64,000 nucleotides of DNA. Origin: an uncultured Chloroflexia bacterium (GTDB taxonomy: Bacteria; Chloroflexota; Anaerolineae; CG2-30-64-16). Positions 7,383-61,372 of this stretch are shown here, in pieces. Position 1 is the stretch's first letter. Each line of letters begins with the position of its first letter. A program made the translations under genes and the position numbers. The stretch is from the NCBI GenBank assembly GCA_963810095.1, contig CAWEMM010000010.1, forward strand, positions 32,001-96,000, written 5' to 3'. The notes under the pieces were generated by a model that saw only the letters and a list, made by a program, of their open reading frames with translations, made no database searches and had not been told where the DNA came from.

Positions 7383-7475
7383 ATTGGACACTGATTGGAT
7401 TGATGCAACTGATTGACGAGATCCCCTTTTTGAGGACGATGTAAATCAGTCAAACGGGTTCAACCTGCGTCCTAT
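7383..7475. repeat. Inverted-repeat element, 'CTGATT' family, copy C (degenerate)
   Basis: attggacactgattggattgatgcaactgatt...aatcagtcaaacgggttcaacctgcgtcctat. Confidence 0.7.
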
Positions 7476-9757: not shown

Positions 9758-9831
9758 GCGTTCCTGCTCCTTGGGCTATGCAGTTCCCGAAGGGAAGCTG
9801 CCAACGCCAACGGCCTCCGGCCGTTGGCGCT

Positions 9832-10434: not shown

Positions 10435-10458
10435 GCTTTCTCCGCGTCCACCAGCCTG

Positions 10459-11663: not shown

Positions 11664-11826
11664 TTCTGTGCTCCTGGCTCGTCGTTTCAACACAGGGACA
11701 CCGAGCCCGAAGGCTTGGCGTCCCTGCGTCAGTAGTGCGTGGCATCGAACGGATTTTCGCTACGCATTATAACAAGAGTCGCCGCGCCAGGCAAGCGATC
11801 CGAGACGCTCTCAACAAATCGAGCGA

Positions 11827-11855
11827 TTGACAAATTGGGCGCGTCGACTTAGAAT
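11827..11855 (+). promoter_or_regulatory. Sigma70-type promoter
   Basis: TTGACA-17 bp-TAGAAT upstream of 11968. Confidence 0.7.
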
Positions 11856-11967
11856 TGATATATAGGTTTTTGGACGGCGTTTTTTCGCGTCGAGCACCCG
11901 GCGGATGTGTGGTTGCCCGCTCGACCGAGCAAAACAGGACCGTTTTCCTTCAGCCAAGGAGGGCCTC

Positions 11968-14250
11968 ATGGCCGAACCTCTCCGCGCGATCGTGGGGCAG
12001 TTTAGTAGCTCGGGCGGGCAGTGGCAGCCGCGTGCGGCAAACGTGCGCGCCGTCGAGCCGGCCCCTGACCATCCGCGAGCGGAACGGGGCAGCCTATACC
12101 TGCTGATCGAAGTGACAGGCGCGGGGGGCGGCCACGCGGCCCTGTACCGTCAGCTGCTGAACGCTGCGCAGACCGCCTATTACGAGGTGGGCGAAGCCGT
12201 AGAGGTCGCACTCCGCCAGGCAGTGCGCGAGGTCCAAGCGATTCTGCGCCGCGCCAACGAGGCACTGCCCGAGGCGCAATGGCGTGCCGGCATGACCATG
12301 GTCGTTCGTTACGGGTCGCAACTCGTGATCGGCCAGGCCGGGCCGTCGTTACTCTTGGTCAGCCATCCCAAGACGGTCAACGTGTATCCCGAGAAGCCGG
12401 GCGAGTCGGGCCCCGCGCTGGGTGGCACCGAGCGGCCCGAGGTCTTCATTTATGATGCGACGTTGGAGGCGGGCAGCATCGCGCTGCTTGCTCAGAGCGA
12501 CTGGGGCAAGCAGGTCCGGCTGGAAGCCCTCGCCGTTGCGGCCGCTGCGACCGGCGTAAACGCCGCAACCCAGTATCTGGGGCAGCTGGCCGGCAAAGCG
12601 GACTTGAGCGCCCTGCTGATCGGGTTCGATTACGACATTCCCTCCGTTAAGGAAGGGTCTACCGGCATTAAGCCGCTGCCGGCGGGCGGTCCGACGGGGG
12701 TCCCTCCCCAGGCAGAGGGCGAGCCCGAGCAAGCCAAGCCGCGCGGCCTGTTCGCCGGGCTGTTCGCCAAGAACCGGGTGGCCGAACGCAACGAGCCAGG
12801 GGATGATGCCCAAAGCGCGGCTAATGTGGTGGAGGAATCGGCCGAGCCTGATGCGCCCGTGGTTCCCATCGCCGCGTCGGTCAAGGCCGTTGCCGTCACC
12901 GCCCCGGCACCCGTGCCTGCAGAGCCTCCGCCCTCGGCCGAAGAATGGAAGGCAGCGACCGCCCGCGAGCAGTGGATGGCCGCCCCGCCTGCGGCTGCCG
13001 TCGCCCCTGTCGCCGTCAACGAGCCCGAGGTCGAGGAAGCGCCTTTCATCCCTGCGCCGCCCCCCAAAAAGGGACGGAGCGCGTGGGCGTTGGTCCTCGC
13101 AGTCGTGATGATTCCGCTCCTGATCGTCGGGGTCGTCGTCGCCATGCTATACGTGCGCACCCAAGCGGCAGACAAGCAGTTCGCGGACGTGCTGGCGGGC
13201 GCACAGAACATCGTCACGCAGGCGGAACAGACGACCGACGACGCCGCGGCTGCACAGCGGCTCGCCGGCGCCAAGGAGTTCCTGGACCAGGCCAAGGCGC
13301 TGCGGCCCACAGATGCGGCATACAAGGACCTCCAGGCCCGTTACGAGAACCTCGTCATGCGGGTCGAGAAGGTGACGCCGCTGTACGGCATCGTGCCGCT
13401 GTGGCCGTTCAAGCCCGAGACCGGGCACGACCTGGCGCGATCGGTCGTCAGCGGCGAGTCGGTGTTCGTGCTCGACAAGGGACCGAACGCAGTCTACCGC
13501 TTTATTCGTTCTTCCCTCGGCGACAATGTCAAGCCTGCTTCGGATAAGCCGGTGGTGCAGAAGGGCGACCCTGCGGGGGACAAGACGCTCGGCGACCTGG
13601 TCGACATGGCGTGGATTGAGGCTGCCACGGCGAACCAGCGGAGCATGTTGCACGTGCTCGATACAACGGGCGAGTTGATGGGCTACGACGAAGTGTACGG
13701 GGAGAAGCGCCTGAAGATCAACCGCGACAAGTGGGTGACGCCCCAGCTAATCACGGGCTACAACGGCAACCTGTACGTGGCCGATCCTGGCGCCGACCAG
13801 GTTTGGCGCTACACGCCGACGGCGAACGGCTACGAAGGCGAGGCGACGGCTTGGTTCCAGGCCGGCAAGGCGCCCGACATGGCGAACCTCGCAGGCATGG
13901 CGATTGACGGCCGCATCTGGCTGCTCTATTCGGACGGCCGGCTCCTCAAGTTCCTGAGCGGCGACCAGCAGCCCTTTGCGTGGAGCGACCTGCCCACGCC
14001 CCTCAACAACCCGACTTCGCTCGCAGTCTCTCAGGAGGGCGACCGGCTGTACGTGGCCGACCCGGGCAATGCACGCATCATCGAGGCCACCAAGGACGGC
14101 AAGTTCCTGCGCCAGTTCAAGGCCCGCGAGGGCGACGTGCTGCGCAATGTACGCCACATATACCTCGATGAGGCCAAGGGACTCTTCTACATCCTGACGG
14201 GCGACCAGCTGTACAAGGCCAGCGTGCCGCAGCCCGGCAAGACACAATAG
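11968..14250 (+). CDS. Membrane-anchored protein: PP2C-like N-domain, Pro/Ala linker, one TM helix, C-terminal NHL/beta-propeller
   Basis: ATG after AAGGAGG; TM WALVLAVVMIPLLIVGVVVAML; repeated LYVADPG / IWLLYSDG / FYILTG blades. Confidence 0.7.
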   Translation: MAEPLRAIVGQFSSSGGQWQPRAANVRAVEPAPDHPRAERGSLYLLIEVTGAGGGHAALYRQLLNAAQTAYYEVGEAVEVALRQAVREVQAILRRANEALPEAQWRAGMTMVVRYGSQLVIGQAGPSLLLVSHPKTVNVYPEKPGESGPALGGTERPEVFIYDATLEAGSIALLAQSDWGKQVRLEALAVAAAATGVNAATQYLGQLAGKADLSALLIGFDYDIPSVKEGSTGIKPLPAGGPTGVPPQAEGEPEQAKPRGLFAGLFAKNRVAERNEPGDDAQSAANVVEESAEPDAPVVPIAASVKAVAVTAPAPVPAEPPPSAEEWKAATAREQWMAAPPAAAVAPVAVNEPEVEEAPFIPAPPPKKGRSAWALVLAVVMIPLLIVGVVVAMLYVRTQAADKQFADVLAGAQNIVTQAEQTTDDAAAAQRLAGAKEFLDQAKALRPTDAAYKDLQARYENLVMRVEKVTPLYGIVPLWPFKPETGHDLARSVVSGESVFVLDKGPNAVYRFIRSSLGDNVKPASDKPVVQKGDPAGDKTLGDLVDMAWIEAATANQRSMLHVLDTTGELMGYDEVYGEKRLKINRDKWVTPQLITGYNGNLYVADPGADQVWRYTPTANGYEGEATAWFQAGKAPDMANLAGMAIDGRIWLLYSDGRLLKFLSGDQQPFAWSDLPTPLNNPTSLAVSQEGDRLYVADPGNARIIEATKDGKFLRQFKAREGDVLRNVRHIYLDEAKGLFYILTGDQLYKASVPQPGKTQ

Positions 14251-18175: not shown

Positions 18176-18218
18176 TATGATTGTGGTCATTGCGATTCGT
18201 ACCCTCGTGTGATAACAC
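18176..18218 (+). promoter_or_regulatory. CRP/FNR-like site plus extended -10 (regulon site 1)
   Basis: TATGA-ttgtgg-TCATT, with TGaTAACAC hexamer starting 37 bp after the motif start. Confidence 0.6.
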
Positions 18219-18248
18219 GGGGGTACTTTAGTTAAGAAGGCCAGTAGT

Positions 18249-18605
18249 ATGCAGCTTCGTGAGGTCATGGCGACGCTGGGCGCGCGCCTGATATCTTCGC
18301 ATTGCGATCCCACCACCGAAATCCGCGCCGGGTTCGCGGCCGATCTGATGAGCGACGCCTTGCGCTACGACCTTTCGCAAGCGCTCCTGGTTTCGGGTCT
18401 CGCGAATCCCCAGGTCGTTCGGACCGCGGAAATGGCCGATGTGGCGGCGATCCTGATGGTGCGCGGCAAAATACCGCCGGCGGATACGCTCGACCTTGCG
18501 GAGGAGATCGGCATCCCTTTTTTGAGCACGGAGCTCACCATGTTTGAGTCGTGCGGCCGGCTCTTTTGTGCGGGTCTATCGCCCTGTAAGCGTCTATACT
18601 CCTGA
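18249..18605 (+). CDS. DRTGG domain protein
   Basis: AADLMSDAL..GLANPQVVRTAEMAD..RGK..MFESCGRL. Confidence 0.85.
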   Translation: MQLREVMATLGARLISSHCDPTTEIRAGFAADLMSDALRYDLSQALLVSGLANPQVVRTAEMADVAAILMVRGKIPPADTLDLAEEIGIPFLSTELTMFESCGRLFCAGLSPCKRLYS

Positions 18606-19546
18606 TGTCCCCCACCGAGGTCTTTAAGGCGCAGGAACTGGTCTACGAGCTGAGGATCGGCGACATCATGACGCGCGAGCTGATCACGGTGACGCCCGAG
18701 ACGACGATGCGCGCGGTCAAGCAATTGCTGCGAGACCAGAAGATCTCCGGGCTGCCGGTGATGCGCGAGGAGCAACTGGTTGGCATCATCAGCATCGAGA
18801 ACCTGATCCGCGCGCTCGAGGCGAACGACCTCGACGCCGAGGTCAACCGCTACATGTCGACGCTCCTATTCACGATTGGCGAGCGCGAGTCCGCGGTGCG
18901 GGCGCTTAACGTGTTCGGCCGGGCCGGGGTCGGCCGGCTGCCGGTCGTCGACGACGACGGCAAGCTGGTTGGCATTCTCACTCCCGGCGACATCACGCGG
19001 GGGGTGCTGCGGGCGCTCGAGCGAGCGTATCACGAGGAAGAGATCCGCAAGTACCGCGTGCGGCACGTGTTTGAGGACATCACTTCGGACCGCACGAGTC
19101 TGATCCTGCGCTACGACATCACTGTGCGCGACTTCAACAAGGCGGGCCGCGCGTCGAGCCACCTCAAGCAGACGCTCGTCCGCTTGGGCATCGACCCGCG
19201 CATCGTGCGCCGGGTGGCAATCGTATCGTATGAAGCCGAGATGAACATCGTGATTCACTCGGAAACCGGGGGCAACCTGGTGGCCGAGATCAACCCGGAG
19301 CTGATCGCCATCCTCGCGTACGATTCCGGACCAGGGATCGAGGATGTGAAAGCGGCCATGCAGCCGGGCTGGAGCACCGCGCCAGACTGGATTCGCGAGA
19401 TGGGCTTCGGCGCGGGCATGGGACTGGCCAACATCAAGGCCACCGCGGACGAGATGTATCTTGACTCGTGGCCGCGCAAGGGAACGAAGCTGGAAGCGGT
19501 CATCTACCTAAAACCCGGGGAGGGGAAGGGAAACCATGAATCTTAA
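18605..19546 (+). CDS. CBS-pair + anti-sigma-type Ser/Thr kinase (HATPase_c) fusion
   Basis: Two CBS repeats, then YEAEMNIVIH, DSGPGI and GFGAGMGLANIK. Confidence 0.85.
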   Translation: MSPTEVFKAQELVYELRIGDIMTRELITVTPETTMRAVKQLLRDQKISGLPVMREEQLVGIISIENLIRALEANDLDAEVNRYMSTLLFTIGERESAVRALNVFGRAGVGRLPVVDDDGKLVGILTPGDITRGVLRALERAYHEEEIRKYRVRHVFEDITSDRTSLILRYDITVRDFNKAGRASSHLKQTLVRLGIDPRIVRRVAIVSYEAEMNIVIHSETGGNLVAEINPELIAILAYDSGPGIEDVKAAMQPGWSTAPDWIREMGFGAGMGLANIKATADEMYLDSWPRKGTKLEAVIYLKPGEGKGNHES

Positions 19547-19871
19547 GGCCATTGTCGACGCGCTCGAACTGCGGGTGGCTGCGGGCGGCGAGCGCCTGGA
19601 TGGCGAAGTAACGGGCGGCTACAGCTCAGACCTGTTGAGCTGTGCGATGGCGGGCGCCGGCAAGGGCGACGTCTGGGTGACGCTGCAGGGGCATCTGAAC
19701 GTGGTGGCCGTGGCCAGCCTGAACGAGTTGGCGGCGGTCATCATCACGGAGAACAAGCCCGTGGCTGCGGAGACGGCGAGCAAGGCCGAAGAAGAAGGCG
19801 TCGTCCTCCTGCAAACCCCGCTGTCCTCCTACCAGGTCATCGGCCGCTTGTGGGATCTCGGGGTGCGTTGA
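19536..19871 (+). CDS. DRTGG domain protein
   Basis: GGYSSDLLS..WVTLQGHLNVVAVASL. Confidence 0.85.
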   Translation: MNLKAIVDALELRVAAGGERLDGEVTGGYSSDLLSCAMAGAGKGDVWVTLQGHLNVVAVASLNELAAVIITENKPVAAETASKAEEEGVVLLQTPLSSYQVIGRLWDLGVR

Positions 19872-19873
19872 TT

Positions 19874-19933
19874 AAACACAAAGACACCAAGGCACAGCGT
19901 TTTCGAGCCCTAGCGTCCTTGTGTCTTTGTGTC
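19874..19933. repeat. Inverted-repeat element, 'ACACAAAG' family, copy 1
   Basis: aaacacaaagacaccaaggcac...gtccttgtgtctttgtgt. Confidence 0.85.
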
Positions 19934-19947
19934 TAAAGATGCCTTCC

Positions 19948-20688
19948 ATGCACACGATCTACGCTGACCTGCACCTGCACACGGTCCTCTCGGCGTGCGC
20001 CGAGGTCGAGATGGTTCCCCCGCTGATCGTGCGTCGCGCGCTGGAGTTGGGGCTTAACCTGCTCGCTGTCACCGATCATAACGCGGCCGCGAACTGCGCC
20101 GCGGTGATGCAGGCAGCGGAGGGGACCGGGCTCATCGTCGTGCCGGGAATGGAAGTGCAGACGGCCGAGGAAGTTCACATGCTGTGCCTGTTTGAGACGC
20201 TCGAGCAGGCGCTGACGTGGCAGGGCATCGTGTTCGACCACTTGCCCGACCTGCCAAACAACGAGGACGCCTTCGGCGGGCAATATGTCGTGGACCGCGA
20301 GGGCGACTACGTCCGGACCGAGGGACGGCTCTTGGCTACGTCGTGCGACCTCGCGGTGGAAGAGGCAGCGCGGCGGGTCACAGCGCTGGGCGGCCTGCCC
20401 ATCCCCGCCCACATCGACCGGGATATGTTTAGCCTCATCGCCAACCTCGGCTTTGTGCCGCGCGATCTCCCCGTGCCCGCACTCGAGCTTTTTCGCCTGA
20501 CGCAGCCCCAGCAACTCATCGCGACGCATCCCGAAATCGCCGCCTATCCTCTCGTGCGCGACAGCGACGCACACCAACTGAGCGACATGCGCCGGAGCGT
20601 TGTTTTCGAGGCCGAGACGGTCTCGTTCGATTCCCTTCGCAGCGCCCTGGGGGCCAGGAGTATGAGGTTGTACCACAAGGACCGCTGA
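19948..20688 (+). CDS. PHP domain phosphoesterase
   Basis: DLHLHT, TDHN, GMEV..EEVH, PAHIDR and SDAH. Confidence 0.88.
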   Translation: MHTIYADLHLHTVLSACAEVEMVPPLIVRRALELGLNLLAVTDHNAAANCAAVMQAAEGTGLIVVPGMEVQTAEEVHMLCLFETLEQALTWQGIVFDHLPDLPNNEDAFGGQYVVDREGDYVRTEGRLLATSCDLAVEEAARRVTALGGLPIPAHIDRDMFSLIANLGFVPRDLPVPALELFRLTQPQQLIATHPEIAAYPLVRDSDAHQLSDMRRSVVFEAETVSFDSLRSALGARSMRLYHKDR

Positions 20689-20778: not shown

Positions 20779-20815
20779 GCACAAATGGCTACGTGGGATA
20801 TTTCACATACGGACG

Positions 20816-21298
20816 ATGCCACTTATGATTGAAGACTTGAGCACCCTCGATTTCGCTCCCCTGGATGCCATCCTCGAGGAGTACGGCGGCCAGAAAGGCG
20901 CAGTGATCCCGATTCTGCAGCATGCGCAGGAAGCCTACGGCTACCTGCCGCGCGAGGTGTTGCAGGAAATCTCGACGCGCACGCACATCCCGCTCAGCAA
21001 CCTGCTTGGCGTTGCCACCTTCTACGCCCAGTTCCGGCTCAGCCGCCGGGGCAAGCACCTGATCCGCGTCTGCGACGGCACCGCCTGCCACGTGCGCGGT
21101 GCGTCGAAGTGCATCGAGTCGGTCGAAAAACAACTCGGCGTGGCCGCAGGCAGCACGTCGGAAGATTACGAATACACAATGGAAATCGTGTATTGCCTGG
21201 GCTCGTGCGGGCTCGCGCCCGTCGCGGTGGTCGACGACAAGGTCTACGGCCGGCTGACGCCGAACAGCCTCGTCGAGCAGCTCGAGGCGCTGGGGTAA
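20816..21298 (+). CDS. NuoE/HydC/HoxE-like [2Fe-2S] subunit
   Basis: GVATFY, CDGTAC and CLGSC. Confidence 0.92.
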   Translation: MPLMIEDLSTLDFAPLDAILEEYGGQKGAVIPILQHAQEAYGYLPREVLQEISTRTHIPLSNLLGVATFYAQFRLSRRGKHLIRVCDGTACHVRGASKCIESVEKQLGVAAGSTSEDYEYTMEIVYCLGSCGLAPVAVVDDKVYGRLTPNSLVEQLEALG

Positions 21299-21308
21299 TC
21301 CCGTTCGG

Positions 21309-21361
21309 GAGACCTGCGGGGGTCTCGACCCTCAGCGAAGCTGAGGCAACCCCGCAGGTGT
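21309..21361. repeat. 'GACCT..AGGT' palindromic element
   Basis: gagacctgcgggggtctc / cctcagc-gaa-gctgagg / accccgcaggt nested hairpins; related to 32127 and 43891. Confidence 0.55.
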
Positions 21362-21373
21362 GAAGATTGACGT

Positions 21374-21997
21374 ATGCTCGAACTCGCCCTGCACGTTCTG
21401 GACATCCTACAGAATACCGTCGAAGCCGGGGCAACCCGCGTCGACGTGAGGATTGCCGAGGATGAACCTGCGGACCGGCTGACTATCACGGTGGCCGACA
21501 ACGGGCGGGGGATGGATGCGCAAACGGTGGAGCGGGTGCTGAACCCGTTTTACACGACCCGGACCACCCGCCACGTCGGGTTAGGGCTGCCGCTCTACGC
21601 CGAGGCAGCCGAGACGGCGGGCGGCGGGCTGACCGTTCAGTCAGAGCCGGGCCAGGGGACGACGGTCGAAGCGACGTTCCGGTTGAGCCACCCGGACCGC
21701 CAGCCGCTCGGCGATATGTCTGGCACGCTGGTGGCTTTCCTGCTGTCAGAGCGGGCGCCGGAGCTGGTGTACAGGCACCGCGTGATAAGAAACCAGGTTT
21801 CTGCCACGCCACGTAGTGGCGCAGAAACACTGGTTTCTCAGGAGCGCGAGTTTACTTTTGACACCGCCGCCATCCGCGCCGAGCTGGATGGCGTGCCGCT
21901 GAACGAGCCCATCGTCGCGCAGTGGCTGGCCGGATTTATCGCCGAAGGCGAGGCTGAAATTAAGAAACCCGGTTTCTCCGAGAAGTTGGGTTTCTAA
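21374..21997 (+). CDS. Histidine-kinase-like ATPase (HydE-type, hydrogenase-operon associated)
   Basis: MLELALHVLDILQN, DNGRGM, PFYTTRTTRHVGLGLP and HPDRQPLGD. Confidence 0.88.
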   Translation: MLELALHVLDILQNTVEAGATRVDVRIAEDEPADRLTITVADNGRGMDAQTVERVLNPFYTTRTTRHVGLGLPLYAEAAETAGGGLTVQSEPGQGTTVEATFRLSHPDRQPLGDMSGTLVAFLLSERAPELVYRHRVIRNQVSATPRSGAETLVSQEREFTFDTAAIRAELDGVPLNEPIVAQWLAGFIAEGEAEIKKPGFSEKLGF

Positions 21998-22008
21998 GGA
22001 GTAACAGA

Positions 22009-22398
22009 ATGCCCAAGCTCAAATCCCTGGATGACCTGAAGCGCGTCCGCGATGAGGCGCAGCAGGCCTTGAAGACCCGATTGGACACCGGCACGACCAT
22101 CATTGTGGGCATGGGCACGTGCGGCATCGCCGCCGGCGCGCGCGACACCATGCACGCGATCCTGGCCGAACTGGCTGCCCGGAACATCGACGCGCACGTG
22201 ACCACGGTAGGCTGCATCGGCCAATGCGTCAAAGAGCCGCTCGTCGACATCGAGCAGGCGGGCCAGCCGCGCATCACCTATGCCAACGTCAGGCCCGACA
22301 TGGTGTCTCGCCTGATCGAAGAGCACCTCATCAACAACCGGCCGGTCGATGAATGGGTGATCGGGCGGCTTGAAACGAACGTTGCACCAACGAACTGA
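22009..22398 (+). CDS. Thioredoxin-like (2Fe-2S) ferredoxin (HydD/HndB-type)
   Basis: VGMGTCGIAAGAR..GCIGQC..EP. Confidence 0.88.
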   Translation: MPKLKSLDDLKRVRDEAQQALKTRLDTGTTIIVGMGTCGIAAGARDTMHAILAELAARNIDAHVTTVGCIGQCVKEPLVDIEQAGQPRITYANVRPDMVSRLIEEHLINNRPVDEWVIGRLETNVAPTN

Positions 22399-22411
22399 AC
22401 GGAGCGGAGCC

Positions 22412-22879
22412 ATGGAACAGTTCACCAGCGTCGAAGCCGTACTCAAGCGGGCCATCCAGCTTGAAGACGAGGCGATGACCATGTACAGCACTGCGGCGCA
22501 GTCGGTCAAGGACGATGCGGTGCGCCAGCGGCTGGAGGAAATGGCGGCACAGGAGCGCGGTCACAAGACCAAGCTCGAAGACGTGCTTTCCGGCAACGTC
22601 CGGTGGGCCATTCGCCGCTCCAAAGCCGAGCCGGTTACGGACCTGCGGCTGAGCGACCACCTGGTCGGTGGGTCGCTGGACCCGAACGCTGACTACCAGG
22701 ACGTGCTGCTCTTTGCGGCACGGCGCGAGAAGGCGGCGCACGATTTTTACAAGGCCATGGGCGAGATGATCGACGACAAGCTCACCCAGAACCTGTTCGA
22801 GATGCTCGCGCAAGAAGAGCTGCGGCACAAGTACGTTCTCGAAAAGACGTACGAAGAGGTCGTTTACAAGGATTTCTAA
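22412..22879 (+). CDS. Ferritin-like/rubrerythrin di-iron protein
   Basis: Two helical repeats AIQLE..Y..QERGH and AARRE..FY..EELRH. Confidence 0.82.
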   Translation: MEQFTSVEAVLKRAIQLEDEAMTMYSTAAQSVKDDAVRQRLEEMAAQERGHKTKLEDVLSGNVRWAIRRSKAEPVTDLRLSDHLVGGSLDPNADYQDVLLFAARREKAAHDFYKAMGEMIDDKLTQNLFEMLAQEELRHKYVLEKTYEEVVYKDF

Positions 22880-22881
22880 AC

Positions 22882-25800
22882 ATGGATAGTAACCTCGTTT
22901 TGAACCCTGGCTCTACGGCCTCTTCTGACCTCTCGCAGGAGGGTTCGCTGCTGCGCGCCGAGGTCTTGATCTGCGGGGGCACGGGCTGCCACTCCTCGAA
23001 TTCGCACGAGGTGGTCACGGCCATCCAGGCAGAGGTAGCCCGCCGCGGGCTCGAGGGCGAAGTACGCGTGGTGCCGACCGGCTGCCGCGGCTTCTGCTCG
23101 ATGGGCCCGGTCATGATGATCTACCCGGAAGGCATCCTTTACTGCCAGGTGCAGGCGTCGGACGTCCCGGAGATCGTCGAAGAGACCCTGCTGAAGGGGC
23201 GCCAGGTGGCCCGGCTGGCCTATCAGGAGCCGAACCAGCACAAGGCGCTGCCCTTCTACCACGACATCCCGTTCTACGGCAAGCAGATCCGCATTGCGCT
23301 GCGCAACTGCGGGTTGATCAACCCGGAGTCGATCGAAGAGTACATCGCCCACGACGGCTATGCGGCGCTGGGCAAGGTGCTCTCGACCATGACGCCGGAG
23401 GACGTGCTGCGCGAGATGAAGGATTCGGGCTTGCGCGGCCGCGGCGGTGCGGGCTTCCTGACCGGCCTGAAGTGGGAATTCGCCCGGCGCAGCCAAAACT
23501 TCCCAAAGTACGTGATCTGCAACGCGGACGAAGGCGACCCCGGCGCGTTCATGGACCGCTCAATCCTGGAAGGCGACCCGCACAGCCTGATGGAAGGCAT
23601 GATCATTGCGGGCTACGCGATCGGCGCCAGCCAGGGGTACGTCTACTGTCGGGCCGAGTACCCGCTCGCGATCCAGCGCCTGAAAACCGCGATCCAGCAG
23701 GCGCACGAGTATGGACTGCTGGGCGAAAACATTCTCGAGTCTGGCTTCTCCTTCGACCTGCGGGTCAAGGAAGGGGCGGGTGCGTTCGTCTGCGGCGAAG
23801 AGACCGCGCTGATGGCCTCGATCGAAGGCAAGCGCGGCGAGCCGCGGCCCCGCCCGCCGTTCCCCGCAGTGGCCGGCCTGTGGGCCAAGCCGTCGAACGT
23901 CAATAACGTCAAATCCTACGCCATGTCGCCCCAGATCATGCTGAAGGGCGCGAAATGGTTCAAGGCTATCGGTCCCGAGAAGTCGCCCGGCACCGCGATC
24001 TTCGCCCTTACCGGCAAGATCAACAACACGGGCCTGATCGAAGTGCCGATGGGCATCTCGCTGGGCGAGATCATTTTCGACGTCGGCGGCGGCATCCCCA
24101 ACGGCAAGCCGTTCAAGGCCGTGCAGACCGGCGGCCCGCTGGGCGGCTGTCTGCCCGCTTCGGCGCTGAACACGCCGGTCGACTTCGACTCGCTCACGGC
24201 GGCCGGCGCGACGATGGGCTCGGGCGGCATGATCGTCGTGGACGACGACACCTGTATGGTCGAGTTCGCCAAGTACTTCCTGCAGTTCGCCACGGCGGAA
24301 TCGTGCGGCAAGTGCGTGCCCTGCCGGGTGGGCGGTATGCGTCTGCTCGAGGTGCTCACGCGCATCAGCGAGGGCCATGGCACGCAGCAGGACGTCGAGG
24401 ATATCAAGTACATTTCGGCCAATATGCAGAGTGCGAGCCTGTGCTCCCTCGGCCAACTTACGCCAGGGCCGGTCATGTCGGCCCTGCGTTTCTTTGCCGA
24501 CGAGTTCCGCGAGCACGTCGACAACCAGAACTGCCCCGCGGGCCAGTGCAAGGCACTGGTGCGCGCGAAGTGCATCAATGCTTGCCCGGCCGGCGTCGAA
24601 AGCCCGGCCTACCTGGCCCTGGTCGCCCAGGGCCGCTACGCGGAAGGGCTTGAAGTCCATCGCCAGCGCAACCCGTTCGCGTCGATCTGCGGCCGGGTGT
24701 GCCCCGCCTTCTGCGAGCAGAAGTGCCGCCGCGGCGAGATCGACGAGGCGATCAGCATCCGGTTGGTCAAGCGCTTTATGGCCGATCACGAGTTCACCAC
24801 GCCGTGGGCGCCGGCAAAGAGCGAGAGCGAGAAGGTGCTGCACGTCGGCGTCGTGGGCGCGGGCCCGGGCGGCCTCACCGCCGCGCTGCGGCTGGCGCAA
24901 AAGGGCTACAAGGTCACCGTCTACGAGAAGCTGCCCATCCCGGGCGGCATGATGGCGGTCGGCATCCCCGACTACCGCCTGCCAACCGACGCGCTCCTGA
25001 GCGAAATCCAGAACGTCATGCGGGCCGGCGTCGAGATCAAGTGCGGCACCGCCCTGGGCGCCGACTTCACCCTGGACGACCTCTTCGAGAAGGAACTCTG
25101 CAACGCGATCGTGCTCGCGATCGGCGCACACAAGAGCCGCAAGCTGGGCATTCCGGGCGAGGAGAAGTCGGGCGTGCTGCACGGCACCGACTTCCTGCGC
25201 GAGGTGGGCCTGGTGCAGCGAGGGGCCGGCGTGGGCACTCTGCCGGACGTCGCGGGGAAGAAGGTCGCCGTGGTCGGCGGCGGCAACGTGGCGCTGGACG
25301 CCGCTCGCACGGCCTGGCGGCTGGGCGCCAGCGAGGTCCACGTGATCTACCGCCGCACGCGGGTCGACATGCCTGCGTATGCGGAAGAGGTCAAGGCCGC
25401 GGATGAGGAAGGTATCCAGTTCCACTTCCTCGCCAACCCGGTCGAGGTGATCGGCGGCGACAAGGTTACCGGTGTCGTGGTGCAGCGGCAGCGCCTGGGC
25501 GAGTTCGACCAGGGCGGACGCCGGCGCCCCGTGCCCATCGAGGGCGACACCTTCGTCCTGCCGGTCGACATGGTCGTCCCTGCCATCGGCCAGACGACCG
25601 ACACGTCGTGGATGCAGAAGGCCGGCATCCAGGCCAGCCGCGGCAGCACCTTTGTGGTGGGAGACGCGTACCAGACCTCACGCGGCGGCGTCTTCGCTTG
25701 CGGCGATGCGGTGAGCGGACCCGCAACGGTCATCGAGGCGGTGGCGCAGGGCAACCTGGTGTCGGTTGCGGTCGACCACTGGCTGAAGACGGGCGAATAC

Positions 25801-26088
25801 CAGCGGCCGAAATACGAGACGCCCCGGCTGGACGTGCCCCAGCTTTACAACCTGGACGACTACGCCACCGCGCAGCGGCCCCACGTCCCTGAGCTCGAAC
25901 TCGGCAACCGGGCCGGCTCGTTCAAAGAAGTCGAATTGGGCTATGACGAGCACACGGCGCGCGAAGAAGCGCGGCGCTGCCTGCGCTGCGACCTGGAGTG
26001 GCTCGACTACATGAAGCTACCGCGTCCGGTGGCTGAACCGGTCGTCGAGCAGGCGCCCCTGGCGGGGGACCCCCTTGCGAGGGGATAG
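22882..26088 (+). CDS. NuoF/HydB-like FMN-NAD(H) subunit fused to GltD/NfnB-type FAD-NADP(H) oxidoreductase
   Basis: CGGTGC/CRGFC, GLRGRGGAG, NADEGDPG, CGEETAL, CGKCVPC..C; then CINACP..CGRVCPAFCEQKC, GAGPGG, GGGNVA..YRR and RCLRC. Confidence 0.9.
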   Translation: MDSNLVLNPGSTASSDLSQEGSLLRAEVLICGGTGCHSSNSHEVVTAIQAEVARRGLEGEVRVVPTGCRGFCSMGPVMMIYPEGILYCQVQASDVPEIVEETLLKGRQVARLAYQEPNQHKALPFYHDIPFYGKQIRIALRNCGLINPESIEEYIAHDGYAALGKVLSTMTPEDVLREMKDSGLRGRGGAGFLTGLKWEFARRSQNFPKYVICNADEGDPGAFMDRSILEGDPHSLMEGMIIAGYAIGASQGYVYCRAEYPLAIQRLKTAIQQAHEYGLLGENILESGFSFDLRVKEGAGAFVCGEETALMASIEGKRGEPRPRPPFPAVAGLWAKPSNVNNVKSYAMSPQIMLKGAKWFKAIGPEKSPGTAIFALTGKINNTGLIEVPMGISLGEIIFDVGGGIPNGKPFKAVQTGGPLGGCLPASALNTPVDFDSLTAAGATMGSGGMIVVDDDTCMVEFAKYFLQFATAESCGKCVPCRVGGMRLLEVLTRISEGHGTQQDVEDIKYISANMQSASLCSLGQLTPGPVMSALRFFADEFREHVDNQNCPAGQCKALVRAKCINACPAGVESPAYLALVAQGRYAEGLEVHRQRNPFASICGRVCPAFCEQKCRRGEIDEAISIRLVKRFMADHEFTTPWAPAKSESEKVLHVGVVGAGPGGLTAALRLAQKGYKVTVYEKLPIPGGMMAVGIPDYRLPTDALLSEIQNVMRAGVEIKCGTALGADFTLDDLFEKELCNAIVLAIGAHKSRKLGIPGEEKSGVLHGTDFLREVGLVQRGAGVGTLPDVAGKKVAVVGGGNVALDAARTAWRLGASEVHVIYRRTRVDMPAYAEEVKAADEEGIQFHFLANPVEVIGGDKVTGVVVQRQRLGEFDQGGRRRPVPIEGDTFVLPVDMVVPAIGQTTDTSWMQKAGIQASRGSTFVVGDAYQTSRGGVFACGDAVSGPATVIEAVAQGNLVSVAVDHWLKTGEYQRPKYETPRLDVPQLYNLDDYATAQRPHVPELELGNRAGSFKEVELGYDEHTAREEARRCLRCDLEWLDYMKLPRPVAEPVVEQAPLAGDPLARG

Positions 26089-26109
26089 AAGGGAGGCAGC
26101 TTCACCACA

Positions 26110-27867
26110 ATGGCACTCGTAAACATCACCATCAACGGTCAGAAGCTACAGTGCCAGGCGGGACAGACGGTGTTGCAGGTGGCGCGAGCCAGCGACATCG
26201 ACATCCCGACCCTGTGCGACCACCCGGCAGTCACCCCATGGGGCGGTTGCCGCATGTGCCTGGTGGAGATCGAGAAGCAGCGCGGCCTCCAGCCAGCTTG
26301 TACGTTCCCCGTCTCCGAAGGGATGGTCGTTGCCACGCACAGCGAGCGCGTTGTCGCGGCCCGCAAGTTCGTGCTCGAGCTGCTCTTCTCCGAGCGGGTG
26401 CATTACTGCATGTACTGCGCGATGAGCGGCAACGAGGGCACGACGCAGTGCGAGCTCCAGGCCCTGGCCTACGAGCACGGCTTGACCCACTGGCGCTATG
26501 AGCCCAACACCAGCCACCCGTGGCCCGTCGACGGCTCGCGCAAGTACTTCTTCATGGATCACAGCCGCTGCATCTTGTGCCGCCGCTGCATTCGGGCGTG
26601 CGACGAGGTGGCGGCGAACCACACGCTGGGCGTGCGCGAGCGCGGCGCGAAGACGATGATCATCGCCGACGTGGACGTTCCGCTTGGCGAGTCGAGCTGC
26701 GTTTCGTGCGGCTCCTGCCTCCAGGTGTGCCCGACCGGCGCCCTGATCGACCGGCGCTCGGCTTACATGGGCGGGACCGGCGAGCTGCAGCGCAAGCAGA
26801 CGACCTGCACCGCTTGTTCCGTCGGCTGCACGGTCGAAGCCGTCTACCGGAGCAACCAACTCCTGCGCGTTGAAGGCGTGTGGGACGCGCCGAACGGCGG
26901 CTTGCTGTGCGTCAAGGGCCGCTTTGAGACCACCGAGCCGAAGCCGAAGCGGGTGACCAGCCCGATGATCAAGCGGGACGGCGAGTGGGTCAAGGCGACC
27001 TGGCCTGAGGCGACCGAGTTCGTGGCGGGCAAGCTGAAGGACGCCGGCAAGGTGGCCGGCCTGGCGTCGCCGCGGGCGACCGTGGAGTCGCTGGGCGTAT
27101 TCAAGCACCTGCTGGCCGACGTGTTGCACAGCGACCAGATCGGCTTGCTCTACGGCGCGGCGCCCCAGGACCTGGGGCCCAAAGCGAGCCTCGCGACGGT
27201 GGCGGGCGCGGATTGCATCATCCTCGTCGGCGGCGATCCGCTCGACGGGCAGAAGGTGTTGGGTTACAAGGTCAAGCGGGCCGTGGACCTGGGCGCGGCG
27301 CTCACAATCGTTGCCGACGGACCCAATGCGCTCGATCCTTGGGCAGCCCGGCACTTGCCGATGAGTGAACTGAGCGAGGTTGCGACGGCCATCGCGGCTG
27401 CGGTACGCCCGGTCGTGCTCTACGCCGCGCATCTGCCCCCCGACGTCTATTCCTTCCTGCGCAGCCTGCCCGAGAAGACGCGCTACCTGGGGCTGGTCGA
27501 GGGCGCGAATGCGGCGGGCGCGGCGCAAATGGGGATCAAGGCCAAGGCTGTGACGGGCGATGCACTGTTTGTGCTGGCCGCAGACGAGACGAAGGACGGG
27601 CACCAGCTGCCCCCGGCCGCGTTCACCGTGGTGCAAGCAGCGTACTGGACGCCGACCGCCGAGCAGGCCGATGTGGTACTGCCCAGCCTGGACTGGTCGG
27701 AACAGCAGGGGCACGTGATCAATATGGAAGGCGCGAGCCTGCCGGTTCAGCCGTTCCTGCAGCCGCCGGCCGGCGTGCAGGCGGACGTAGCGACGCTGGG
27801 CGCGCTGGCGACCCGGCTGCGCGAGCCCGCGGCGCGGGCGTCCTGGCCCCAGGCAGAGAGGAGCTAG
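26110..27867 (+). CDS. NuoG/HydA/HoxU-like Fe-S subunit with degenerate molybdopterin-oxidoreductase domain
   Basis: [2Fe-2S] CDH..CRMC..C, HYCMYC..C, CILCRRC..C, CVSCGSC..C, CTACSVGC..C; no H-cluster motifs. Confidence 0.85.
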   Translation: MALVNITINGQKLQCQAGQTVLQVARASDIDIPTLCDHPAVTPWGGCRMCLVEIEKQRGLQPACTFPVSEGMVVATHSERVVAARKFVLELLFSERVHYCMYCAMSGNEGTTQCELQALAYEHGLTHWRYEPNTSHPWPVDGSRKYFFMDHSRCILCRRCIRACDEVAANHTLGVRERGAKTMIIADVDVPLGESSCVSCGSCLQVCPTGALIDRRSAYMGGTGELQRKQTTCTACSVGCTVEAVYRSNQLLRVEGVWDAPNGGLLCVKGRFETTEPKPKRVTSPMIKRDGEWVKATWPEATEFVAGKLKDAGKVAGLASPRATVESLGVFKHLLADVLHSDQIGLLYGAAPQDLGPKASLATVAGADCIILVGGDPLDGQKVLGYKVKRAVDLGAALTIVADGPNALDPWAARHLPMSELSEVATAIAAAVRPVVLYAAHLPPDVYSFLRSLPEKTRYLGLVEGANAAGAAQMGIKAKAVTGDALFVLAADETKDGHQLPPAAFTVVQAAYWTPTAEQADVVLPSLDWSEQQGHVINMEGASLPVQPFLQPPAGVQADVATLGALATRLREPAARASWPQAERS

Positions 27868-27871
27868 CCGC

Positions 27872-28420
27872 ATGGCTGAGAATGAAAAGCCAACAGTCGC
27901 CAGTGAGTGGCTGACGGGCTGCGCAGGCTGCCACATGTCCTTGTTGGATATGGACGAGCGTATCGTCGACATTGTAACGGCTGCGACGCTGTGGTCGACG
28001 CCGATCACCGATCTGAAGCATCCGCCGGAAGAAGGCGTCACGGTCGGCATCCTCGAGGGGGGCATCAACAACTCCACAACCGAGGAAGTCGCCAAGATGA
28101 TGCGGGCGCGCTCGAAGATCCTGATTGCCTTGGGCGACTGCGCGGTGTTCGGCGGCGTGCCGGCCATGCGCAACGCTTGCGGCATCCAGGAGGCGCTCCA
28201 ACGGGCATACGTGGAGAGCGAGAGCACGGTCGACGGCCAGATCCCGAACCACCCGGACATCGCGGTGATGCAGGAGACCCGGCCCATCGACGCCGTCGTG
28301 CCGGTCGACATCTACTTGCCCGGCTGTGCACCGAGTGCAGACGCGATCTTCTACGTGTTGTTCGAGCTGGCAAACGGCCGCATGCCCGAGGTCAAGGGCA
28401 AATTCCTGGACTGGCATTAA
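27872..28420 (+). CDS. hoxY: Group 3 [NiFe]-hydrogenase small subunit
   Basis: [12 protein letters not shown] and PGCAP; 182 aa with only the proximal cluster. Confidence 0.88.
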
Positions 28421-28429
28421 GGGGGACGT

Positions 28430-29854
28430 ATGCCAACGAAGATCATGATTGAGCCCGTAACCCGCATCGAGGGACACGCCAAGGTTGGCGTGTACCTGGA
28501 CGACCAGGGCCAGGTGGAAAAGGCGGTCTTCCACGTCAACGAGTTCCGCGGCTTCGAGAAGTTCTGCGAAGGCCGCATGTTCTTCGAGATGCCGCTCATC
28601 ACCGAGCGCATCTGCGGCATCTGCCCGGTGAGCCATCATCTGGCTAGTGCTAAGGCATGCGACCAGATTGTGGGCGCGGACGTGCCGCGGCCGGCCAGTC
28701 TGCTGCGCGAGCTGATGCACATGGGGCAGATCATCCAGTCTCACTCCATGCATGTGTTCGAACTGGGCGGGCCCGATCTGTTGCTGGGGTTTGACTGCGA
28801 CCCGAAGATCCGCAACGTTGTGGGGCTGTATGGCGCGAACCCCGAGCTGACCGTCAAGGCGATCGGCCTGCGCAAGTACGGCCAGGACATCATCGCGCGG
28901 CTGGGCGGCCGGCGCGTGCACCCGAACTTCGCGGTGCCGGGCGGCGTGAACCAGGCGCTGGCGGTGACCGACCGCGACGCGCTGCTGGGCGGGATCGATG
29001 GGACTATCGCGGACATCCGCCTGGGTCTTGGCATCATCAAGGGCTGGGTGGAGGCGAACTACGAGGATGTCGCCAAGTTCGGCGTCTTCTCCACCAACTA
29101 CCTCGGCATGGTCGACGAAAACAACGCGGTGCAGCTCTACGATGGCGACGTGCGTATCGTGGACAAGCAGCGGCAGTTCATCAACAAGTTCGACGGCCGC
29201 AAGTACCTCGACTACATCAGCGAGCGGGTGGAGAACTGGACGTACCTGAAGTTCCCGTACTACAAATCGCTGGGCTGGCCAGACGGCGTGTATCGCGTCG
29301 GGCCGCTGGGCCGGCTCAACGCGGCCGAACGCATGGCCACGCCGCTGGCGCAGGAAGAGTATGAAATCTTCCAGCAGGTGCGCGGGGGCCAGGTGCTCGA
29401 GGGAACTCTATACTACCACTACGCCCGCATGATTGAGGACTTGTACGCGGCCGAGCGGGCGAAGGAAATCCTGCTCGACCCGGATGTGCTCAGCACGGAC
29501 ATCCAAGATAACCGCCCGGTGACCAACGCCGAGGGCGTGGGCGTCATCGAAGCCCCGCGCGGCACGCTGTGGCATCACTACTGGGTCGACGAGAACGGTC
29601 AGCTCGAAAAGGTCAACCTGATCGTGGCAACGGGCAACAACAACTGGGCCATGAGCAAGGCGGTCGACTCGGTGGCGAAGACCTACGTGGACGGCAAGAA
29701 CGTCACGGAGGGCCAGCTCAACCGCATCGAAGCGGCCATCCGGGCCTATGACCCGTGCCTGTCGTGCTCCACGCATGCGCTCGGGCAGATGCCGCTCGAA
29801 GTCGTGGTGTATGACGACTCGGGAGACGAAGTCAACCGGGTCATGCGCGGATAA
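28430..29854 (+). CDS. hoxH: Group 3 (3d-like) [NiFe]-hydrogenase large subunit
   Basis: [18 protein letters not shown] (L1), [14 protein letters not shown] (L2) plus a cleavable C-terminal tail. Confidence 0.93.
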
Positions 29855-29870: not shown

Positions 29871-29921
29871 AACATGGGCGCGACTGCGGCGGCCAGCGGC
29901 CGCCGCAGTCGCGCCCATGTT
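29871..29921. terminator. Perfect 24-bp hairpin ending the hydrogenase operon
   Basis: aacatgggcgcgactgcggcggcc-agc-ggccgccgcagtcgcgcccatgtt. Confidence 0.6.
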
Positions 29922-33091: not shown

Positions 33092-33953
33092 ATGGCTAAC
33101 TCTGAGATCAGTGTCGACGCGTTGATGCCCGCCGAAATGGCGGCCAAGGCCGAAGCCACGGGCATTCGTAAGGCCGGCATGAACCTGTCCATCATGGCCG
33201 TGATGTCGATGCTGGCCGGCGCGTTCATCGCCGCCGGGGCATTTTTCTCGACCACGATCGTCGCGGGTGCGAGTGGCGTCTTGCCGTATGGCATCATTCG
33301 CCTGCTTGCAGGCGGCGCGTTCTGCATCGGCCTCATCCTGGTGATCGTGGCAGGCGCGGAGCTGTTCACCGGCAACAACCTCATTATTATGGCTTGGGCG
33401 GACCAGAAGGTGACCACTGCCAAGCTGCTGGAGAACTGGGGGGTGGTCTGGGTCGGTAACTTCGTGGGCGCGGTGCTGACCGCACTTCTCATGTTTGCCT
33501 CCAGGCAGTACACCTTCGGCGCCGGCTCGGTCGGGTACGCGGCGCTGAGCAGCGCGAACACGAAGGCCGGGCTGGATTTTTGGCAGGCGATCGCGCTGGG
33601 CATCCTGTGCAACGCGCTCGGTCTGCATCGCCGTGTGGCTCTGCTACAGCGCCCGCACCACGACGGACAAGATCCTCTCGATCATTTTTCCCATCACCGC
33701 GTTCGTCGCCTGCGGCTTCGAGCACAGTGTGGCGAACATGTATTACATCCCGATGGCCTTGCTGATCAAGAATTATGCGCCGGAGAGCTTCTGGGCCGCG
33801 ATCAAACACGTACCGGCCGACTTCCCGAATCTGACGATACAGAACATGTTCGTCAATAACCTGATCCCGGTGACAATCGGCAATATCATCGGTGGCACAG
33901 TCATGGTAGGTCTGGTATACTGGTTTGCATATTTGCGGCCGCGCCGCGCCTGA
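33092..33953 (+). CDS. Formate/nitrite transporter (FocA/FdhC family); +1 frameshift near 33620
   Basis: GAELFTGN, LGILCNAL[g]VCIAVW, FEHSVANM and VTIGNIIGG. Confidence 0.9.
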
Positions 33954-42852: not shown

Positions 42853-42925
42853 AACACAAAGACACCAAGGCACAAAGCTTTTCCGACAGCAGATAAGTGC
42901 CTTCGTGTCGTTGTGCCTTTGTGTT
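42853..42925. repeat. Inverted-repeat element, 'ACACAAAG' family, copy 2
   Basis: aacacaaagacaccaaggcacaaag...cttcgtgtcgttgtgcctttgtgtt. Confidence 0.85.
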
Positions 42926-42938
42926 AAAGAGTGCATCC

Positions 42939-61370: not shown

Positions 61371-61372
61371 GA

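Follow-up and report, generated by a model that had tools for sequence, protein, structure and literature searches.

The stretch of DNA analysed here, referred to as the window, is a 64,000-nucleotide (nt) part of contig CAWEMM010000010.1 (assembly GCA_963810095.1, positions 32,001-96,000), and all coordinates are window-based. At 20816-29854 it carries eight tightly packed open reading frames (ORFs) on the + strand, with gaps of 2-75 nt in the ORF list. To judge from its sequence, the encoded enzyme is cytoplasmic and soluble; it belongs to the [NiFe] hydrogenases of the Bfu (HydABCSL) family, and its HydB subunit is fused to a GltD-like module. Subunit identities were obtained from Pfam and NCBIfam profile searches, and each structural subunit was searched against all PDB sequences. 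The gene order proposed in a preliminary description of this DNA (hydC, HATPase, thioredoxin-like ferredoxin, ferritin-like, hydB, hydA-like, small subunit, large subunit) was borne out by the ORFs and by both profile collections. Published work is cited from the accessible parts of its text. The features of the operon are as follows.

20816-21298, + strand: hydC (BfuC/NuoE-like; PF01257, 164 bits)
21374-21997, + strand: HisK-like ATPase, HATPase_c only (PF02518, 72 bits)
22009-22398, + strand: hydD, thioredoxin-like ferredoxin fold (PF01257, E 9.8e-4; NF041612, E 1.4e-5; both below cut-off)
22412-22879 (listed ORF from 22370), + strand: ferritin/rubrerythrin-like diiron four-helix protein, 155 residues (PF02915, 52 bits)
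22882-26088, + strand: hydB::gltD (NuoF::GltD fusion), 1068 residues (Pfam, NCBIfam)
22882-24549, + strand: N-terminal 556 residues of HydB, BfuB core (786-789 bits to 7t2r_B)
24550-26088, + strand: C-terminal NfnL/GltD-like module of HydB, residues ~557-1068 (PF14691, PF07992, PF00070)
26110-27867, + strand: hydA (BfuA, NuoG-like), 585 residues (Pfam; best PDB match 7t2r_A)
27872-28420, + strand: hydS, small subunit, 182 residues (PF01058; best PDB match 7t2r_E, 157 bits)
28430-29854, + strand: hydL, [NiFe] large subunit, 474 residues (PF00374; 558 bits to 7t2r_D)
29873-29919, + strand: terminator-like hairpin, 20-bp stem with 16-17 G-C pairs and a T-rich tail, 19 nt past the hydL stop

The N-terminal part of HydB was aligned residue by residue with its counterpart in the NiFe-HydABCSL enzyme of Acetomicrobium mobile. 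Residues 23-561 align to residues 3-541 (of 597) of 7t2r_B with a constant offset of +20. The core matches PF01512 and PF10589 as well as TIGR01959 (486 bits, below its 559 cut-off). The B5 [2Fe-2S] site is formed by C31, C36, C68 and C72, in a region matched by PF01257 (26-101) and NF041612 (36-112); the site for flavin mononucleotide (FMN) and NAD(H) is kept, and the B1 [4Fe-4S] ligands are C475, C478, C481 and C521. The B2-site ligands of A. mobile HydB (C438, C476, H525, C531 and C536; Schut et al., PMC9304861) correspond to C458, S496, H545, C551 and C556, the C476 position being only semi-conserved according to the A. mobile study (PMC8880783). The B2 site was reassigned to Zn in later work, as far as its accessible text goes, and the B2-site histidine is reported to be absent from non-bifurcating homologues (Schut et al., PMC9304861). 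Whether it holds a cluster or Zn, the B2/Zn site is the signature of bifurcating BfuB. HydB keeps all of the features that set bifurcating BfuB apart from NuoF, HoxF and FdsB, namely the N-terminal B5 site and His545/Cys458/Cys551/Cys556.

The alignment with 7t2r_B stops at residue 541, where the B3/B4 ferredoxin domain of A. mobile HydB begins. A Fer4-type (B3/B4) domain was not found in HydB with Pfam; instead, a GltD-type Fer4_20 cluster domain follows. It joins the HydB core without a linker: C564-x3-C568-P starts eight residues past Cys556 and is followed by C603-x3-C607-x3-C611-x3-C615. The Pfam matches of the module are PF14691 at 553-639, PF07992 at 655-957 and PF00070 at 794-868. Its two [4Fe-4S] sites comprise C564, C568, C603, C607, C611 and C615 together with the permuted C1033 and C1036. 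The flavin adenine dinucleotide (FAD) site is marked by G659xG661xxG664 and YR699LP, and the NADP(H) site, aligned to NfnA, NfnL and GltD, by GGGNVA (799-804) and YRR (823-825). The best PDB matches are Tsi NfnA (9n5u_A, 390 bits), Csac NfnA (9bov_A, 354 bits) and Sporomusa ovata StnC (8oh5_C, 312 bits), against 282 bits for Pyrococcus furiosus NfnL (5jca_L), 271 bits for Thermotoga maritima NfnB (4ylf_B) and 223 bits for GltD (2vdc_G). Since the C-terminal segment with RCLRC (1032-1036) was aligned by HMMER to residues 8-51 of NfnL, that is to the NfnL N-terminus, the module is circularly permuted in the manner of NfnA/StnC, and the last 100 residues of HydB supply the two missing cluster cysteines. 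The Fer4_20 match begins only at profile position 21, and TIGR01316, TIGR01317 and TIGR01318 score below their cut-offs for the module. As an origin of the fusion, a simple nfnB-nfnA deletion in an Nfn-Bfu operon does not fit, as HydA keeps its own N-terminal [2Fe-2S] domain.

Conservation was assessed in an alignment of 30 full-length fusion homologues with 64-93% identity to the query. The eight module cysteines, the B1 and B2/Zn ligands, C68, C72 and the FAD, NADPH and YRR motifs are invariant, and C31 and C36 of B5 are at least 90% conserved. There is no sign of decay, and the module is complete and under selection. The preliminary description had quoted the HydB motifs DDDTC458, EH545 and C551PAGQC556, which are present and align to the A. 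mobile ligands, along with GGGNVA (799-804) and YRR (823-825), and its central claim, a Bfu scaffold in which the 2x[4Fe-4S] arm of HydB is swapped for a GltD/NfnB-like Fe-S/FAD/NADP(H) module, was fully confirmed by the Pfam, NCBIfam and PDB searches and by the alignments. The most economical functional reading would be an enzyme that couples H2 to both NAD+ and NADP+. Such an enzyme need not bifurcate: FMN and FAD could act as independent exits at which either NAD+ or NADP+ is reduced with H2, or the reverse, and in a variant of this explanation the enzyme is an H2-buffered NADH/NADPH transhydrogenase without energetic coupling. The nicotinamide couples are close in potential, and H2 is able to reduce either of them at a moderate pressure. 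Each site is complete, and a continuous FMN-FAD cluster chain would permit plain transhydrogenation. However, all of the Bfu-specific elements (the His/Cys B2/Zn site, B5 and a separate HydC with its C1 cluster) are kept and invariant, whereas the characterised non-bifurcating homologues lack B2-B5 in the published descriptions accessible to us. We regard a dual-coenzyme hydrogenase of this kind as rather unlikely.

The type of module bears on a further explanation, in which the enzyme has four substrates (H2, NAD, NADP and ferredoxin) and unites a HydABCSL hydrogenase with an Nfn-like transhydrogenase in one complex. Ferredoxin would dock at the distal [4Fe-4S] cluster of the module, and the FAD would be either a second bifurcating centre or a side entry. 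For [FeFe] enzymes with this BfuB design, a second 'FAD' bifurcation centre has been raised (Zheng & Huang, PMC11406978), and the GltA domain of HydB in archaeal hybrid hydrogenases has been assigned 'likely ferredoxin' (Greening et al., PMC11216029). The module is, moreover, homologous to NfnL, whose clusters reduce ferredoxin, and a ferredoxin-linked NfnAB is used elsewhere in the genome: a canonical two-gene pair on another contig (C6; L093:449-2826) consists of a DHODB_Fe-S-type NfnA followed by a 512-residue GltD-type NfnB with a full-length Fer4_20 domain. Against tandem bifurcation, the module belongs with the permuted NfnA/StnC modules (CPAFCExxC, C-terminal RCLRC) and not with the NfnSL type; the FAD of NfnABC is not at the junction of two paths and is described, in the accessible text, as a plain NADPH entry site; and the operon holds no NfnS-like [2Fe-2S]/FAD partner (no GltB or NfnS gene was found in it from the ORFs and Pfam). 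This explanation seems to us improbable, with perhaps one chance in a handful of being correct. Contig C6 carries another GltD-type match within a 1145-residue open frame.

For four of the five structural subunits (HydL, HydS, HydA and the HydB core) the best PDB match is A. mobile NiFe-HydABCSL (7T2R). HydL reaches 558 bits with its A. mobile counterpart (7t2r_D), compared with 408 bits for MvhA and 400 bits for HoxH of 5XF9, and HydS scores 157 bits against 7t2r_E (179 residues), compared with 129 and 114 bits for its counterparts in the MvhA enzyme and in 5XF9. HydA aligns to 7t2r_A over residues 4-345 (274 bits). For HydC the A. mobile subunit comes second (7t2r_C, 152 bits) behind 8a6t_C (170 bits); the top seven PDB matches are all C subunits of the Bfu family, and the four cysteines C86, C91, C127 and C131 form the set for the C1 [2Fe-2S] cluster. 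HydL has CxxC pairs near both ends. Behind its DPCLSCSTH motif near the C-terminus come 25 further residues, a tail such as maturation proteases cut off, as expected of a precursor. Because HydS has just four cysteines (C17, C20, C90 and C152), it has enough for a single proximal [4Fe-4S] cluster only. In HydA five cluster motifs were recognized, comprising a [2Fe-2S] site, a His-ligated [4Fe-4S] site, a 2x[4Fe-4S] domain and a Molybdop_Fe4S4 cluster (Pfam Fer2_4, NADH-G_4Fe-4S_3, Fer4_Nqo3 and Molybdop_Fe4S4; TIGR01973 NuoG at 278 bits, below cut-off), and its C-terminal half is an NuoG/Fdh-like degenerate molybdopterin fold (Pfam, NCBIfam). The H-cluster domain Fe_hyd_lg_C was not found in HydA with Pfam, and a HydA with five Fe-S motifs and without an H-cluster had been described beforehand, correctly. 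The names hoxY and hoxH used there for the last two genes are better replaced by hydS and hydL, since both products score higher against A. mobile 7T2R than against 5XF9. Assignment to the Hox hydrogenases (group 3d) was rejected on the same comparison and on the profile scores (HoxE NF005747, 150 against a cut-off of 224; HoxU NF005745, 237 against 333).

Three further genes accompany the structural ones. The HisK-like ATPase consists of HATPase_c only, no transmitter domain being seen with Pfam, and is the counterpart of the hisK of the A. mobile operon, which itself stands outside the holoenzyme (PMC8880783, PMC9304861). HydD has only three cysteines (C38, C69 and C73), compared with four in thioredoxin-like [2Fe-2S] ferredoxins; its 'GTCG ... 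GCxGxC' pattern is also seen in the N-terminal domain (39649-39800) of a second BfuB::GltD paralogue in the window. The start of the ferritin-like gene was placed at the conserved ATG at 22412 (155 residues), not at the TTG at 22370, by comparison with 21 orthologues. The protein has two conserved ExxH motifs, E48, H51, E136 and H139 being invariant in a 21-sequence alignment, and it weakly matches the ferritin end of the NCBIfam GltD-ferritin fusion family PRK12775 (E 6.8e-5). The latter match, together with the position of the gene directly upstream of hydB in Chloroflexota NiFe and formate dehydrogenase (Fdh) operons and the listing of a rubrerythrin-linked Bfu by Schut et al. (PMC9304861), favours the idea that the module serves another acceptor, either the ferritin-like diiron protein in a protective O2/H2O2 removal driven by H2 or NAD(P)H ('Rub-Bfu'-like) or polysulfide (cf. 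the sulfide dehydrogenase SudA), with the dinucleotide site secondary. Among the loci examined by tblastn, however, the ferritin-like gene was found only in the Chloroflexota versions of the operon and was undetected in Planctomycetota and Verrucomicrobiota operons with the same fusion, so that it is not a general partner, and the NADP(H) motifs are invariant. Complex prediction for the GltD half (residues 553-1068, with FAD, two 4Fe-4S and an alignment of 30 rows) and the ferritin-like protein (21-row alignment) gave scores of 0.28 and 0.01, the mark being 0.32, which speaks neither for nor against an interaction. An acceptor of this kind is very improbable.

The distribution of the fusion was surveyed with a word-indexed protein search that gave 7,999 scored candidates, of which 120 were listed. 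All 120 of the matches listed (837-1,155 residues, 78-100% query cover, 64-93% identity) contain both the NuoF and the GltD Pfam domains, and where they are named they are annotated only as 'NADH-quinone oxidoreductase subunit F' or 'FAD-dependent oxidoreductase'. The fusion is common in metagenome-assembled genomes (MAGs), and Anaerolineae, Planctomycetota and Verrucomicrobiota of sediments, soils and digesters carry it frequently. A match across both halves was present in at least 18 of 300 other Chloroflexota genomes (an even sample that includes four unpublished genomes, none of them among the 18).

Eighty loci were taken from species-representative genomes, and the fusion and its partners were scored by tblastn. 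The hosts given in the records include members of the Chloroflexota (Anaerolineae and others), Planctomycetota, Verrucomicrobiota, Acidobacteriota, Bacillota and Omnitrophota. The fusion is present in at least 63 of the 80. Its partner is NiFe HydS and HydL in 40 of these 63 loci, a selenocysteine-type FdhA in eight, an HoxU-like gene with an HdrA-MvhD fusion in two, both from Anaerolineae (L043, including 5335-8276, and L045), and an [FeFe] HydA in one from Omnitrophota (L055, 11102-12883). No partner was seen in the remaining 12; in 11 of these the downstream sequence is shorter than 3 kb, and in the twelfth (L042) a DNA methylase gene sits before an FdhA-like gene (9681-13225). In the two Fdh loci scanned with Pfam (L003 and L011) a formate transporter follows, and L003 also has Hdr-like genes. 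The 17 loci scored as non-fused comprise ten with a canonical [FeFe]-linked HydB, three at a contig edge (L060, L076 and L077), two with less than 500 nt downstream (L059 and L066), one with a distant NuoF (L080) and one with fragmentary matches only, which is probably fused (L078). The pairing of one core with NiFe, Fdh, HdrA-MvhD and [FeFe] modules is the modular Bfu pattern, in which the third substrates are of mid potential; recurrence with Fdh and [FeFe] modules, as in bona fide Bfu cores, also speaks against a non-bifurcating dual-coenzyme hydrogenase. In two loci (L029 and L054) the order is permuted, with hydA-hydS-hydL upstream of hydD-hydB::gltD.

A quick maximum-likelihood tree of 70 BfuB cores was calculated, with SH-aLRT support only. 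The core from the window groups next to those of L001 and L005, and a well supported 13-row Anaerolineae clade mixes NiFe-linked (four) and Fdh-linked (five) cores. Two bins labelled Bifidobacteriaceae (L029 and L035) fall among Verrucomicrobiota and Planctomycetota rows, which suggests mislabelled bins or gene transfer. The genome itself holds a second copy: a BfuC and BfuB::GltD pair lies 10 kb downstream in the window at 39101-42843 on the + strand, adjoining fdhA. This Fdh-linked copy beside the NiFe-linked one illustrates the mixing of partners within the Anaerolineae clade. Its two genes are as follows.

39101-39652, + strand: NuoE/BfuC of the second cluster
39649-42843, + strand: second BfuB::GltD paralogue, 58% identical to the first

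The adjoining fdhA, with an NuoG-like N-terminus, is spread over three frames on the + strand (42897-44003, 44185-45312 and 45197-45817). One of its breaks is the usual selenocysteine TGA ('CARL*HS'), and the other two, near 43990 and 45290, resemble frameshifts; the gene is either a pseudogene or affected by assembly indels. A formate/nitrite transporter-like ORF (33092-33859, + strand) matches profile positions 1-159 of 240 and may be truncated. Two other NuoF-type paralogues of the genome were scanned with Pfam, neither having a ferredoxin-type C-terminal domain; a third lies in a 427-residue open frame, too short for such a domain.

Upstream of hydC, four genes at 18249-20688 are packed as tightly as those of the hyd operon and are preceded by a hairpin at 18199-18226. 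They are perhaps accessory or regulatory, and their membership of the operon is uncertain.

18249-18605, + strand: DRTGG-like gene (Pfam, below cut-off)
18605-19546, + strand: gene with a CBS pair and HATPase_c_2 (Pfam; HATPase_c_2 below cut-off)
19536-19871, + strand: DRTGG-like gene (Pfam, below cut-off)
19921-20688, + strand: PHP-domain gene (Pfam)

The sole sigma-70-like match near hydC (20802-20829) runs over the start codon and does not convince as a promoter. At the other end the operon is evidently closed by the strong predicted terminator hairpin just past hydL. A scan of the window with Rfam at gathering thresholds gave no match. No maturation protease gene lies inside the operon. 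The NiFe maturation genes hypE, hypD and hypF are found in the window at 56355-63515 on the - strand, and two HycI-family proteases are encoded in the window, the better scoring of which (62922-63515, - strand, 102 bits) is a candidate for HydL processing. An Hdr/Mvh-type (group 3c-like) cluster occupies 48355-55423 on the + strand, with genes for a CCG-domain HdrB-like protein, HdrA, MvhD, an MvhG-like and an MvhA-like subunit and a HycI protease. Its MvhA-like large subunit is 43% identical to HydL, and the genes for its small and large subunits are separated by one for a PD-(D/E)XK nuclease-family protein (52978-53373).

Sequencing runs were also compared with the operon. In the metatranscriptome run X14, 5% of the sampled words were present. 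The X14 pieces listed are ~90% alike (for example 15 differing letters in 151, and 28 in 280) and cluster where hydB and hydL are conserved, which shows that relatives are their source. Transcription is not proved by contigs of an RNA library, and these pieces are no evidence for expression of the operon. The DNA runs X1, X2 and X5 contain short exact pieces; these runs may include the source sample and so give no independent support.

In the canonical Bfu enzymes, the mobile HydC cluster carries the low-potential electron away from the 'flavobicluster' of FMN, B1 and C1 to B3/B4, from where it passes to ferredoxin. Homology indicates that in the enzyme from the window H2 is split at HydL and that a cluster wire runs from the single cluster of HydS through the five of HydA to B1 and the FMN of HydB; it likewise points to an NAD(H) site at that FMN, a C1 cluster in HydC and a complete two-cluster/FAD/NADP(H) module. 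We propose that the two GltD-type [4Fe-4S] clusters take the functional place of B3/B4. The low-potential electron from the flavobicluster would reach them through the mobile C1 domain, and they would pass electron pairs through the FAD, which would exchange hydride with NADP(H). In this scheme the low-potential partner would be the NADP couple, the more reduced of the two in the cell, and the high-potential partner the NAD couple, giving a ferredoxin-independent bifurcation or confurcation: 2 H2 + NAD+ + NADP+ <-> NADH + NADPH + 2 H+. We give this ferredoxin-independent, H2-coupled reaction an even chance of being what the enzyme does. In a fermenting Anaerolineae-like host the likely direction would be production of H2 from NADH and NADPH, or of formate in the paralogue; at high H2 the enzyme could make NADPH.

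Further arguments support the proposed role of the module. B3/B4 are reported, in the accessible text, to be required for bifurcation in Thermoanaerobacter kivui HydABC and in Tsi NfnABC, and a functional low-potential branch would thus call for a two-cluster replacement. Since the other Bfu elements are kept and two new clusters are present, the simplest reading is that the branch is kept and its terminal acceptor changed; that the ferredoxin arm is missing speaks against an obligatory role of ferredoxin as partner. Physiological potentials of -280 mV for NAD, -380 mV for NADP, -414 mV for H2 and -500 mV for ferredoxin (E'; Schut et al., Table 1, PMC9304861) were used here in a Nernst calculation of H2 thresholds. 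The mean potential of the NAD and NADP couples, -330 mV, is reached by the H2 couple at about 150 Pa; the corresponding pressures are about 3 Pa with NADH as the only donor and about 0.15 bar when NADH is combined with ferredoxin. A range around 150 Pa plausibly fits fermenters of sediments and digesters. Pairing of the same core with Fdh fits as well, because H2 and formate are isopotential sinks.

Several points weigh against ferredoxin-independent bifurcation. The mechanism ascribed to every enzyme with this fusion is drawn from homology. If the costly low-potential electron goes to NADP+ (E' about -380 mV) and not to ferredoxin (about -500 mV), the potential spread is small. Tight coupling may be dispensable. 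Homologous clusters in NfnSL pass electrons to ferredoxin. For the archaeal hybrid HydB, ferredoxin has been guessed as the acceptor at the GltA domain (Greening et al., Cell 2024, PMC11216029). The specificity for NADP(H) over NAD(H) is suggested by motif conservation only, and the canonical NfnAB in the genome implies that a ferredoxin pool is in use in the organism. An AlphaFold2 model of the whole fusion (mean pLDDT 71, pTM 0.54, residues 299-456 poorly modelled) yields no usable geometry between the halves.

To our knowledge, ferredoxin is the low-potential partner in all of the characterised Bfu enzymes, and the mechanism of bifurcation at a single FMN is still debated. A natural variant that has a hydride-transferring NADP(H) module where the ferredoxin arm would be, and that keeps the other elements of bifurcation, would offer a clean experimental handle: whether the low-potential branch still works, and with what coupling, becomes directly testable, which makes the enzyme relevant to the fields of electron bifurcation and hydrogen ecology. 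More generally, and more tentatively, the fusion may represent a ferredoxin-free Bfu platform in which the HydBC flavobicluster splits electrons from H2 or formate between the NAD and NADP pools, with FAD-bound NADP(H) as the low-potential partner; a bolder version has FMN-FeS and an NfnL-like FAD bifurcating in series. We consider such a platform possible, somewhat short of an even chance. If it exists, hydrogenase and formate dehydrogenase would be poised near 100-200 Pa H2 and would set the NADPH/NADH disequilibrium directly. The modelling of H2 and formate thresholds and of NADPH supply would then change for abundant fermenters among the Anaerolineae, Planctomycetota and Verrucomicrobiota.

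The configuration had been called apparently uncharacterised, and this holds in part. No biochemical study was found, and a search of the full-text literature, with most subscription journals and supplements outside it, returned neither a bacterial NiFe-HydABCSL with HydB::GltD nor biochemistry of the design; the same HydB design is, however, in print in silico (PMC11406978, PMC11216029) and is common in MAGs. The design is widespread and was known beforehand in silico for [FeFe] Bfu and archaeal hybrid hydrogenases, so the fusion itself is not new. The 2022 Bfu census was made with a domain-architecture search in which IPR017896 was one of four domains and from which metagenomic data were excluded (Schut et al., PMC9304861); fusions that lack this domain and lineages represented by MAGs only would thus not have been collected. 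Of the Bfu features as censused, the enzyme from the window fails one, the ferredoxin-type B3/B4 (IPR017896) in BfuB.

Among the known systems, A. mobile NiFe-HydABCSL (7T2R/7T30; Feng et al. 2022, PMC8880783) has the same five-subunit set and, in addition, the non-structural hisK and hydD genes; its operon also carries a HydP gene (PMC8880783, PMC9304861). Both enzymes have a small subunit with a single cluster, a HydA without an H-cluster and a HydB with B5, FMN, B1 and the B2/Zn site. They differ in that the HydB of A. mobile has at its C-terminus a ferredoxin-type 2x[4Fe-4S] domain, which reduces ferredoxin, whereas here residues 557-1068 form an Fe-S/FAD/NADP(H) module, and in that the operon from the window has the extra ferritin-like gene and no maturation protease gene inside it. 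The Hox enzymes of group 3d (HoxEFUYH/HoxFUYH, 5XF9) are likewise soluble NAD-linked NiFe hydrogenases with an NuoE/F/G-like diaphorase and a one-cluster small subunit; as described in the accessible text of PMC8880783 and of another paper, HoxF lacks B2-B5 and HoxU is a truncated NiFe-HydA, in contrast to the 585-residue HydA found here. GltD/NfnB (NfnL) proper shares the FAD and NADPH dinucleotide motifs of the module, but has an N-terminal RCxxC before the cluster domain and a GltB or NfnA (NfnS) partner, both of which the module from the window lacks.

The sub-type I BfuABC group A3 [FeFe]-hydrogenases (Zheng & Huang 2024, PMC11406978) have the same BfuB design, presented in the accessible text in silico only, in which B3/B4 are replaced by DPD_II (Fer4_20) and an FAD/NAD(P)-binding domain. 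Their partner is the group A3 [FeFe] HydA, whereas here a NiFe HydSL is connected through a HydA without an H-cluster. The archaeal hybrid [FeFe]/[NiFe] hydrogenases (group F / 3f; PMC11216029) also combine an NuoF-type HydB with a glutamate-synthase-type domain in a NiFe-containing HydBC(D) complex; they have an HydA-HyhS fusion and two hydrogenase modules, in contrast to the plain bacterial HydABCSL layout found here. The Nfn-Bfu enzymes NfnABC/StnABC (9N5U, 9BOV, 8OH5) share the BfuB/BfuC core and the same permuted module, with RCLxC after the FAD/NADPH domains and CP(A/H)(F/P)CExxC. In Nfn-Bfu the module lies in BfuA, between the [2Fe-2S] and NuoG/Fdh-like domains, where it feeds the mid-potential input, and BfuB keeps B3/B4. 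In the enzyme from the window, by contrast, HydA has no GltD domain and would provide the mid-potential input together with HydS and HydL, and the module is carried by BfuB in place of the ferredoxin arm.

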